Below, in pieces: positions 1,370 to 1,909 of a DNA stretch of 2,547 nt (positions within the stretch are counted from its first letter, which is position 1; each line of letters opens with the position of its first letter). The DNA comes from Escherichia coli (GTDB taxonomy: Bacteria; Pseudomonadota; Gammaproteobacteria; Enterobacterales; Enterobacteriaceae), in the NCBI RefSeq assembly GCF_003334785.1, contig NZ_QOWV01000056.1. One strand, written 5' to 3'. Below the pieces are notes generated by a model. The model did no database searches, was not told the DNA's origin, and was given only the letters and a program-made list of their open reading frames with translations. Both the position numbers and the translations under genes were made by a program.

Positions 1370-1909
1370 TCAGACCGTAAATAACACCAGTATCAGCATA
1401 ACCAACCAGACCCAGAAATACGCAGGTTTTTGTCCGAGGATTTTTGCCCGACGCCACAGATAAACCGGGATCAACCATGCCAGCCAGCCAAATGTTGCAG
1501 TATCAACACCAGATTTACGGAGTTTTCGTTCATCCAGATATCCCAGAGCAATATTCAGAATCAGAGAGATAAACCAGTACTGGCCTTCGCTGACTGCATC
1601 ATAAGCCCGTTCAAATGACATACCGTTCAGCCCTGCAGTCCACATCTCAAGTATGTACCCAATCAAAGGGGCAAATGCCAGCGTCCAGACAACGCCTCCG
1701 GGAATGCGGTGACCCGGAAGGGCTGGGGGAACTTCACTTTGTTTCAGTATTTCCGCCAGTGATGTGGCTGAAACTGGCTGCCATTCCAGCATGCCCTGTT
1801 GCCACACCAGTGTTGATGCATTCAGTTCACCACGCCGGATACGTTCGATAATATCTTCCTCTGTTACGTTATCATAACGTACACCATTTTTTTCATAATG
1901 CCAGTTCAT
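1370..1909 (-). CDS. Membrane protein with N-terminal GYF_2/DUF4339-like domain and 3-4 C-terminal transmembrane helices, 179 aa
   Basis: Complete ORF with ATG at 1909..1907 and TGA at 1372..1370; strong AGGAG 6 nt upstream. Residues 1-55 (MNWHYEKNGVRYDNVTEEDIIERIRRGELNASTLVWQQGMLEWQPVSATSLAEI) fit the W-Y..NG...G.I..TLVW..GM.W pattern I associate with DUF4339 (GYF_2); recollection, not searched. Hydrophobic segments at about residues 72-93, 110-124, 139-152 and 163-179. The + ORFs 1430..1618 and 1615..1851 are antisense shadows. Confidence 0.8.
   Translation of the reverse strand: MNWHYEKNGVRYDNVTEEDIIERIRRGELNASTLVWQQGMLEWQPVSATSLAEILKQSEVPPALPGHRIPGGVVWTLAFAPLIGYILEMWTAGLNGMSFERAYDAVSEGQYWFISLILNIALGYLDERKLRKSGVDTATFGWLAWLIPVYLWRRAKILGQKPAYFWVWLVMLILVLFTV

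Follow-up and report, generated by a model that had tools for sequence, protein, structure and literature searches.

To our knowledge, GltJ of Myxococcus is so far the only bacterial protein combining a GYF domain with a membrane module to have been studied. The GYF domain of GltJ binds a proline-rich sequence of AglZ through its β-sheet, with a binding surface that differs from the canonical one; the same work found that most bacterial GYF proteins pair an N-terminal GYF domain with a C-terminal membrane module and proposed for them, in general terms, a role in transmembrane signalling (PMC11135422). Here we describe a small protein of this architecture encoded on the minus strand at positions 1370-1909 of a 2,547-nucleotide (nt) stretch of Escherichia coli DNA (NCBI RefSeq assembly GCF_003334785.1, contig NZ_QOWV01000056.1), which we call the window. 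The RefSeq annotation of this 179-amino-acid (aa) protein as DUF4339 and its architecture class were known already. New are three modest observations, namely a membrane module that had not been catalogued, a proline motif (PPxL) that accompanies the GYF domain, and a gene for an exported protein that recurs directly downstream.

Results

An intact and constrained accessory gene

The gene, the signals preceding it and the parts of its product are the following.

1370..1909, minus strand: coding sequence of the 179-aa GYF-domain inner-membrane protein, intact in the list of open reading frames (ORFs), with an ATG start; RefSeq name "DUF4339 domain-containing protein"

1916..1920, minus strand: Shine-Dalgarno sequence AGGAG, read from the sequence, followed by the 6-nt spacer AATCAG and the ATG at 1909-1907

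1973..2001, minus strand: sigma-70 promoter-like sequence TTAATA-17-TATTAT, about 64 nt 5' of the start codon, with 9/12 matches in a consensus scan

1766..1903, minus strand: GYF_2 domain (PF14237, formerly DUF4339), residues 3-48, from Pfam, predicted to be cytoplasmic

1718..1729, minus strand: juxtamembrane PPxL motif (P61, P62, A63, L64), about 10 residues before the first helix, from the family alignment

1373..1696, minus strand: C-terminal four-helix membrane module, residues 72-179, with no Pfam family

The gene is 99.9-100% identical to annotated E. coli genes. In pairwise comparisons with orthologs from eleven genera, the ratio of nonsynonymous to synonymous substitution rates (dN/dS) is 0.06-0.11, with similar values for the GYF and membrane halves, which marks it as a genuine accessory gene, intact and kept by purifying selection. 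A reading made earlier from the sequence alone had credited it with a strong ribosome-binding site, and AGGAG at 6-nt spacing is indeed the best among the three ORFs of the window, with the downstream 137-aa ORF having GGAG at a spacing of 8 nt and the upstream 117-aa ORF having no recognisable site. The promoter-like sequence at 1973-2001 is weak evidence for a promoter, since such sites are no more frequent in the window than expected from shuffled sequence.

The GYF domain

The Pfam GYF_2 model matches the N-terminal domain at E=1.3e-11 (44.6 bits, model positions 1-46 of 50), and precomputed Pfam annotations of orthologs also give GYF_2. In an AlphaFold2 model built from 20 homologs (mean predicted local distance difference test score, pLDDT, of 85), the domain adopts a GYF fold, with strands at residues 3-7, 10-15 and 34-37 and a helix at 17-25, modelled at pLDDT 84-89. 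A Foldseek search with this domain returned the solved GYF domains of GltJ (7z3c), GIGYF1/2 (7rup) and Smy2, with a probability of 1.0 for 7z3c and 7rup and target-normalised template-modelling scores of 0.52-0.67, and a family profile aligned with the GltJ GYF sequence from 7z3c at E=7.8e-7. These matches, together with the RefSeq name, bear out the GYF_2/DUF4339 assignment made in the sequence-only reading.

Residues W3, R11, W36 and W43 are invariant in the family alignment; the conserved aromatic W3, W36 and W43, like the PPxL motif described below, hint indirectly at a proline-rich ligand. The canonical signature of eukaryotic GYF domains, a G-Y-F tripeptide and W-x-Y...G-P-F, is not present; the corresponding positions read W3-H-Y5, D13-N14-V15 and W36-QQ-G39-M-L-E-W43, which is neither GYF nor GPF. 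This is the usual state of bacterial GYF domains, which mostly lack the canonical G-Y-F or GPF signature (PMC11135422).

An uncatalogued membrane module

The C-terminal module is modelled as four helices of 16-23 residues (72-94, 112-132, 137-158 and 163-178) and a further short helix at 99-107 (module pLDDT 88, predicted template-modelling score 0.75). On the Kyte-Doolittle scale, windows of at least 1.6 occur at 69-87 and 157-179, covering the first and last helices, with the middle two helices weaker, while the Wimley-White octanol scale gives four favourable 19-residue windows. The protein has no signal peptide. We infer that its N-terminus faces the cytoplasm, because relatives fuse the same module to cytoplasmic domain types. 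The cytoplasmic N-terminus and three to four membrane helices envisaged earlier thus agree with the hydropathy, the AlphaFold2 helices and the fusions, and both a GYF_2 match and membrane segments are present in the one protein. In this orientation, the loop at residues 95-111 is predicted to be periplasmic; it is the least conserved and most gap-rich part of the family alignment, in contrast to the conserved helices and remaining two loops. All told, we regard the description of the gene, its domain and its membrane module as close to certain.

The module matched no Pfam family even at E<=10, and no counterpart was found in Pfam, NCBIfam or solved structures. A CPBP-type protease motif considered in 'DERKLR' was dropped, as R131 is not conserved and there are no conserved histidines. 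Searched against 1.84 billion representative proteins, a profile of the module matched 1031 clusters at E<=1e-3 and 512 at E<=1e-10, the family thus comprising about 1000 clusters as defined at 50% identity, and the module is nearly always C-terminal in the matched proteins. Among its best 150 representatives, 110 carry GYF_2 and 14-32 carry zinc ribbons, with single cases of FHA, RING, SHOCT or DUF2510 domains. Many relatives sharing the fold of the 179-aa protein, 160-250 aa long, are present in the AlphaFold database.

The PPxL motif accompanies the GYF domain

Between the two domains lies the PPxL motif, of which P61, P62 and L64 are invariant among close family members. Across the same 150 representatives sharing the membrane module, PPx[LIVM] or PPP occurs no more than 22 residues before W75 in 97 of the 110 with a GYF domain and in 4 of the 40 without, and these four look N-terminally truncated. 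By this count, the alignments place PPxL with the GYF domain and not with the membrane module. GYF domains bind proline-rich peptides, and the co-occurrence of the motif with the domain therefore suggests that PPxL could be a ligand of the GYF domain, either in cis or between subunits.

Other proline motifs occur in proteins of the island backbone, 'LPPPAQQ' in DUF932 (around residue 181-190) and 'LPPGPF' in DUF905 (around residue 8). In principle these could also be GYF ligands, and nothing distinguishes them from chance occurrences.

Distribution and island setting

About 25 enterobacterial genera have close orthologs, of 178-180 aa and 73-85% identity. Relatives that share the architecture at 34-47% identity are found in Alcanivorax, Pseudomonas, Acinetobacter, Burkholderiales, Pasteurellaceae and some non-proteobacterial metagenome bins, and the 178-186-aa architecture is kept from Enterobacterales to Burkholderiales, Pseudomonas and Alcanivorax. 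Within E. coli, 148 of 5426 complete genomes have a homolog, and all 150 copies are chromosomal. The allele of the window (at least 95% identity) is present in 78 of these 148 carriers, and the gene for the 137-aa protein is found in the same 78 E. coli genomes, a co-occurrence that reflects linkage in one island segment. By tblastn, no homolog was found in 50,697 phage records, on which basis a phage origin was rejected, and one was found among 72,556 plasmids; PHROG matches of the window proteins probably reflect island or prophage-derived entries.

Positions 1-2461 of the window are 99.9% identical to a chromosomal island of E. coli TW10722, and the window is 95-99% identical to islands of O157:H7, O111, O145 and other strains. 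The region is part of an integrative element of the CP4-57/CP4-44 type, with the GYF gene in a variable cargo slot. On one side, the island carries DUF4942, DUF957, DUF5983, CbtA, CbeA/YeeU, DUF987, a JAB/RadC protein, an antirestriction protein, DUF932 and DUF905; on the other are a patatin-like phospholipase, an RdcB-family protein, a dynamin-family protein and a Cah/Ag43 autotransporter. In TW10722 (L001 17625-21987), the operon of the patatin-like phospholipase, RdcB and dynamin genes lies upstream of the cassette, followed by Cah/Ag43, in the place where other genera have a WYL-domain regulator resembling YfjR.

The genes of the window all lie on the minus strand, in the transcription order 117-aa ORF, GYF gene, 137-aa ORF, DUF905 remnant and start of DUF932. 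The features flanking the GYF gene are listed below.

2441..2547, strand not assigned: end of an IS66-like (ISCro1-family) element, abutting the YfjT remnant; similarity to TW10722 stops at 2461

2035..2388, minus strand: upstream 117-aa ORF, 5'-truncated member of the YfjT family (PF27224), hidden Markov model (HMM) match at E=6e-43

687..1100, minus strand: downstream gene; 137-aa exported product, signal peptide present, 4 cysteines; phrog_8968 match at E=9e-36

612..632, minus strand: intrinsic-terminator-like hairpin and T-run, 3' of the 137-aa gene

366..589, minus strand: frameshifted DUF905 pseudogene of the island backbone, mapped from the RefSeq annotation of a 99.9% identical locus

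1..266, minus strand: 5' part of a DUF932 (YfjQ/YafZ-like) gene of the island backbone, running off the window

The intergenic regions 1101-1369 and 1910-2034 are AT-rich, with about 31% G+C compared with 48-53% within the GYF gene, as is typical of horizontally acquired DNA. No Rfam match to a structured RNA was found in the window at E<=1, and its repeats are nothing but short, chance-like matches, none of them notable in 1101-1369 or 1910-2034.

In other Enterobacterales, the cargo slot is bounded by a YfjP-like GTPase and a YfjR-like WYL regulator on one side and by DUF905, DUF932, antirestriction, RadC and CbtA/CbeA genes on the other. The main gene order is YfjP-like GTPase, DUF932, YfjR-like WYL regulator, GYF gene, 145-aa and 136-aa proteins, DUF905 in some cases, antirestriction and RadC. 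WYL regulators often control defence systems, and this order raises the question of whether the cassette acts against phages or plasmids or in entry exclusion, with the membrane module perturbing or guarding the inner membrane and the GYF domain sensing a proline-rich protein of the invader. In most enterobacterial loci, the GYF gene comes right after the helix-turn-helix WYL regulator (PADLOC WYL model, E=5e-17), and defence genes, among them abpAB and rnlAB, are found on CP4-57-type islands. The membrane module is joined to many different cytoplasmic domains of sensor type (GYF, zinc ribbon, FHA and RING), and RadC, integrase or XRE-type genes are frequent in the vicinity of distant copies. 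However, the WYL gene is absent from the window, and homologs are all but missing from the phage and plasmid records given above. PADLOC matches neither the GYF protein nor its exported neighbours: with PADLOC-DB 2.0, none of the three window proteins matched at E<=1, and in an intact Salmonella cassette only the WYL regulator (WYL model) and the GTPase (LeoBC model) did so. Membership in a known defence system was accordingly rejected, and a role as exclusion or defence effector, which context alone suggests, seems to us quite unlikely.

The flanking genes are not paralogs

According to the sequence-only reading, the GYF gene sits between a secreted protein and that protein's degenerate paralog, an arrangement that suggested an immunity or receptor partner. 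The 117-aa and 137-aa products align by BLASTP at E=0.49 over 7 residues, and hhalign of the two families gives a probability of 38% over 29 columns, all within the signal peptides. Moreover, the two ORFs match separate family HMMs (YfjT at 6e-43 and the 137-aa family at 6.5e-41). Paralogy of the two was therefore rejected.

The 117-aa ORF is 37% identical to residues 50-146 of the K-12 protein YfjT (E=4e-20). It lacks approximately the first 45 residues, and with them the signal peptide and the N-terminal WTSGxGxGVxEY motif, and in-frame stops lie upstream; on these grounds the ORF is a 5'-truncated YfjT-family remnant and, as it stands, not a secreted protein. RefSeq annotates only a 57-aa hypothetical protein at this locus. 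As for the 137-aa protein, NCBIfam and PDB sequence searches returned nothing, and homology to YfjT, YfjS or IrmA was rejected by BLASTP. Its family takes in 136-, 145- and 150-aa proteins encoded beside the GYF gene in Citrobacter, Yersinia, Hafnia, Salmonella and many other genera.

True paralogs do flank the gene elsewhere. An intact cassette of a Salmonella enterica island (L092 775-6683) has the order GTPase, WYL regulator, 188-aa protein, YfjS/YafY lipoprotein, 150-aa protein, GYF_2 protein, 137-aa protein, DUF905 and DUF932, with the GYF gene between two members of the 137-aa family (E=2e-8). In the lineage of the window, the upstream part of this Salmonella-type cassette has been replaced. 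The Salmonella arrangement, and the tandem 145- and 136-aa paralogs that follow the GYF gene in Citrobacter and many other genera, would fit an immunity or receptor partner. Against this, the upstream ORF of the window belongs to an unrelated family, no toxin domain was detected in the exported proteins, and their Sec-type signal peptides and cysteines are typical of ordinary periplasmic proteins. With nothing specific in its support and no PADLOC match, we consider such a role very improbable.

Exported proteins recur downstream of the GYF gene

Besides the 137-aa family, the exported neighbours of the GYF gene include the YfjS/YafY lipoprotein, a 190-215-aa secreted protein, YfjT and IrmA. 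In E. coli RCAD0514, for example, a GYF allele of 80% identity is followed directly by a gene for an interleukin-receptor-mimic protein of the IrmA family (L090 3963-4415; match to PDB 5EK5 at E=8e-54). Counting only relatives below 60% identity, 18 of 32 distinct ORFs that come next downstream on the same strand encode a signal peptide or lipobox (a lipobox in 11), compared with 14 of 189 background ORFs located more than 2 kb away at the same loci. This corresponds to an odds ratio of 16 (Fisher p=7e-10), an effect size that is approximate given a crude, home-made signal-peptide heuristic and ORF calling and a background that holds some spurious ORFs. The median intergenic gap to the downstream neighbour in these relatives is about 80 nt; the corresponding gap in the window is 269 nt and contains no terminator-like site.

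Among distant relatives (L051, L055, L057, L074; L080, L081, L087), neighbours include small membrane proteins that have an N-terminal 'GFSWTxFFFG' motif. Tandem arrays of zinc-ribbon proteins carrying the same C-terminal membrane module are also among these neighbours.

Discussion

We propose, as the likeliest of the roles considered, that the 179-aa protein is a membrane-anchored GYF adaptor carried as island cargo, a mechanism that we put forward tentatively, at somewhat less than an even chance. In our model, a proline-rich peptide would dock on the conserved β-sheet face of the GYF domain, as it does in GltJ. This peptide could be part of the protein itself, namely its PPxL motif, bound in cis or between subunits, which would make the protein an autoinhibited or oligomerising switch; alternatively, it could belong to a different protein of the cytoplasm. 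The membrane module would keep the complex at the inner membrane, where the short, hypervariable periplasmic loop at 95-111 would alone be in a position to touch the exported proteins or lipoproteins so frequently encoded directly downstream. From the recurrent downstream genes, we infer that the 179-aa protein cooperates with its exported neighbours. Taken together, the description and the adaptor mechanism form our favoured explanation, which as a compromise between the two we regard as evenly balanced.

Several points weigh against this explanation. The PPxL motif could equally be a structural extension of the GYF domain. The loop at residues 153-162 is strongly positive throughout the family (mean K+R 3.0, D+E 0.2), a charge that contradicts a four-span topology with the N-terminus inside; the number of full spans would be three or four, and the helix at 139-152 may be interfacial or re-entrant. 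In the model, periplasmic exposure amounts to only some 16 residues, and a partner would find little to bind to. At least five unrelated families are represented among the exported neighbours (the 137-aa family, YfjT, the YfjS lipoprotein, IrmA and the 215-aa family), and island cargo slots may simply be rich in exported proteins. YfjT and YfjS of K-12, and IrmA of uropathogenic and enteroaggregative E. coli (UPEC and EAEC), occur in islands without a GYF gene, so coupling is not obligate from the neighbours' side. The 269-nt gap in the window is long enough for a separate promoter. Lastly, a search of the literature on DUF4339, yfjR, yfjS and yfjT found no functional study, and no experiment on the family.

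Many of the same observations would be expected if the GYF protein and its exported neighbours were separate genes in an insertion-prone slot that do not interact, with the membrane protein acting alone on a host target. The unrelated neighbours, their occurrence without the GYF gene and the long gap in the window all fit such independent cargo, as does the shuffled gene order, YfjT following the GYF gene in Yersinia and Mixta but preceding it in the window and two Pseudomonas loci. IrmA, moreover, has a role of its own, being described as a cytokine-binding protein (PMC4807369), and in UPEC and EAEC it sits in a flu-yeeR-irmA unit (PMC9431211). On the other hand, the enrichment for signal peptides and lipoproteins downstream persists in distant, non-enterobacterial loci with short gaps, which chance co-location explains poorly, and we consider independent cargo, the chief rival reading, possible but doubtful. 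The coupling to an exported neighbour that had been suggested for the window thus has indirect comparative support, from the downstream enrichment and from the paralogs flanking the gene in Salmonella, while an obligate coupling is undercut by neighbours that are unrelated to one another and in some cases occur without the GYF gene.

Beyond the adaptor itself, we speculate that the GYF protein and the downstream exported protein or lipoprotein could form a widespread two-gene envelope module on mobile islands. The periplasmic loop would pair with a variable partner, and the PPxL-gated GYF domain would pass on or pick up a signal across the inner membrane; such a module might serve in exclusion of, or defence against, incoming DNA under the WYL regulator. 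This wider reading we hold to be unlikely. If the adaptor model is true, it would provide a first functional handle on many bacterial proteins that combine a GYF domain with a membrane module, and would bear on the envelope-protein cassettes of CP4-57/CP4-44-type islands, which occur in pathogenic E. coli (O157, O111, O145 and enterotoxigenic strains), Salmonella, Yersinia and Citrobacter. For now, the practical importance is modest, the gene being an automatically annotated accessory gene.

Comparison with known systems

We know of no Agl-Glt, MglA or AglZ system in Enterobacterales. In M. xanthus, GltJ is part of the Agl-Glt gliding machinery (structure of its GYF domain, PDB 7Z3C) and, like the 179-aa protein, has GYF_2 on the cytoplasmic side of a membrane protein; in both proteins, the G-Y-F tripeptide is absent and the conserved residues lie on β-strands (PMC11135422). 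The two differ in most other respects. GltJ is 671 aa long and comprises a zinc ribbon, a long linker, a single membrane span and a TonB-C-like region in the periplasm, whereas the 179-aa protein lacks a zinc ribbon, has four helices in its membrane module and exposes almost nothing to the periplasm. The NCBIfam GltJ equivalog NF033761 scores 16.3 bits against a cutoff of 450, with only the GYF region aligning, and the 179-aa protein is therefore not a GltJ ortholog.

The eukaryotic GYF domains of CD2BP2, GIGYF1/2 and Smy2 share the same small β-β-α-β-β fold and the general role of recognising proline-rich peptides. Their identity to the domain described here is 12-23%, and neither the GYF tripeptide nor the canonical hydrophobic pocket is conserved in it. 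Closer in overall layout are the generic DUF4339/GYF membrane proteins surveyed by Attia et al. (2024), which belong to the same architecture class and have the same RefSeq name. What sets the present subfamily apart from them is its particular, uncatalogued C-terminal module and its ties to mobile islands and to downstream genes for exported proteins.

In genomic setting, the nearest counterpart is the yfjR-ypjK-yfjS-yfjT cassette of CP4-57 in K-12. This cassette has no GYF gene, with ypjK, which encodes a sequence-unrelated 78-aa membrane protein, in its stead. It nevertheless occupies the same slot in the same family of islands, places a WYL regulator ahead of small envelope proteins, and includes YfjT, the homolog of the ORF upstream of the GYF gene in the window.

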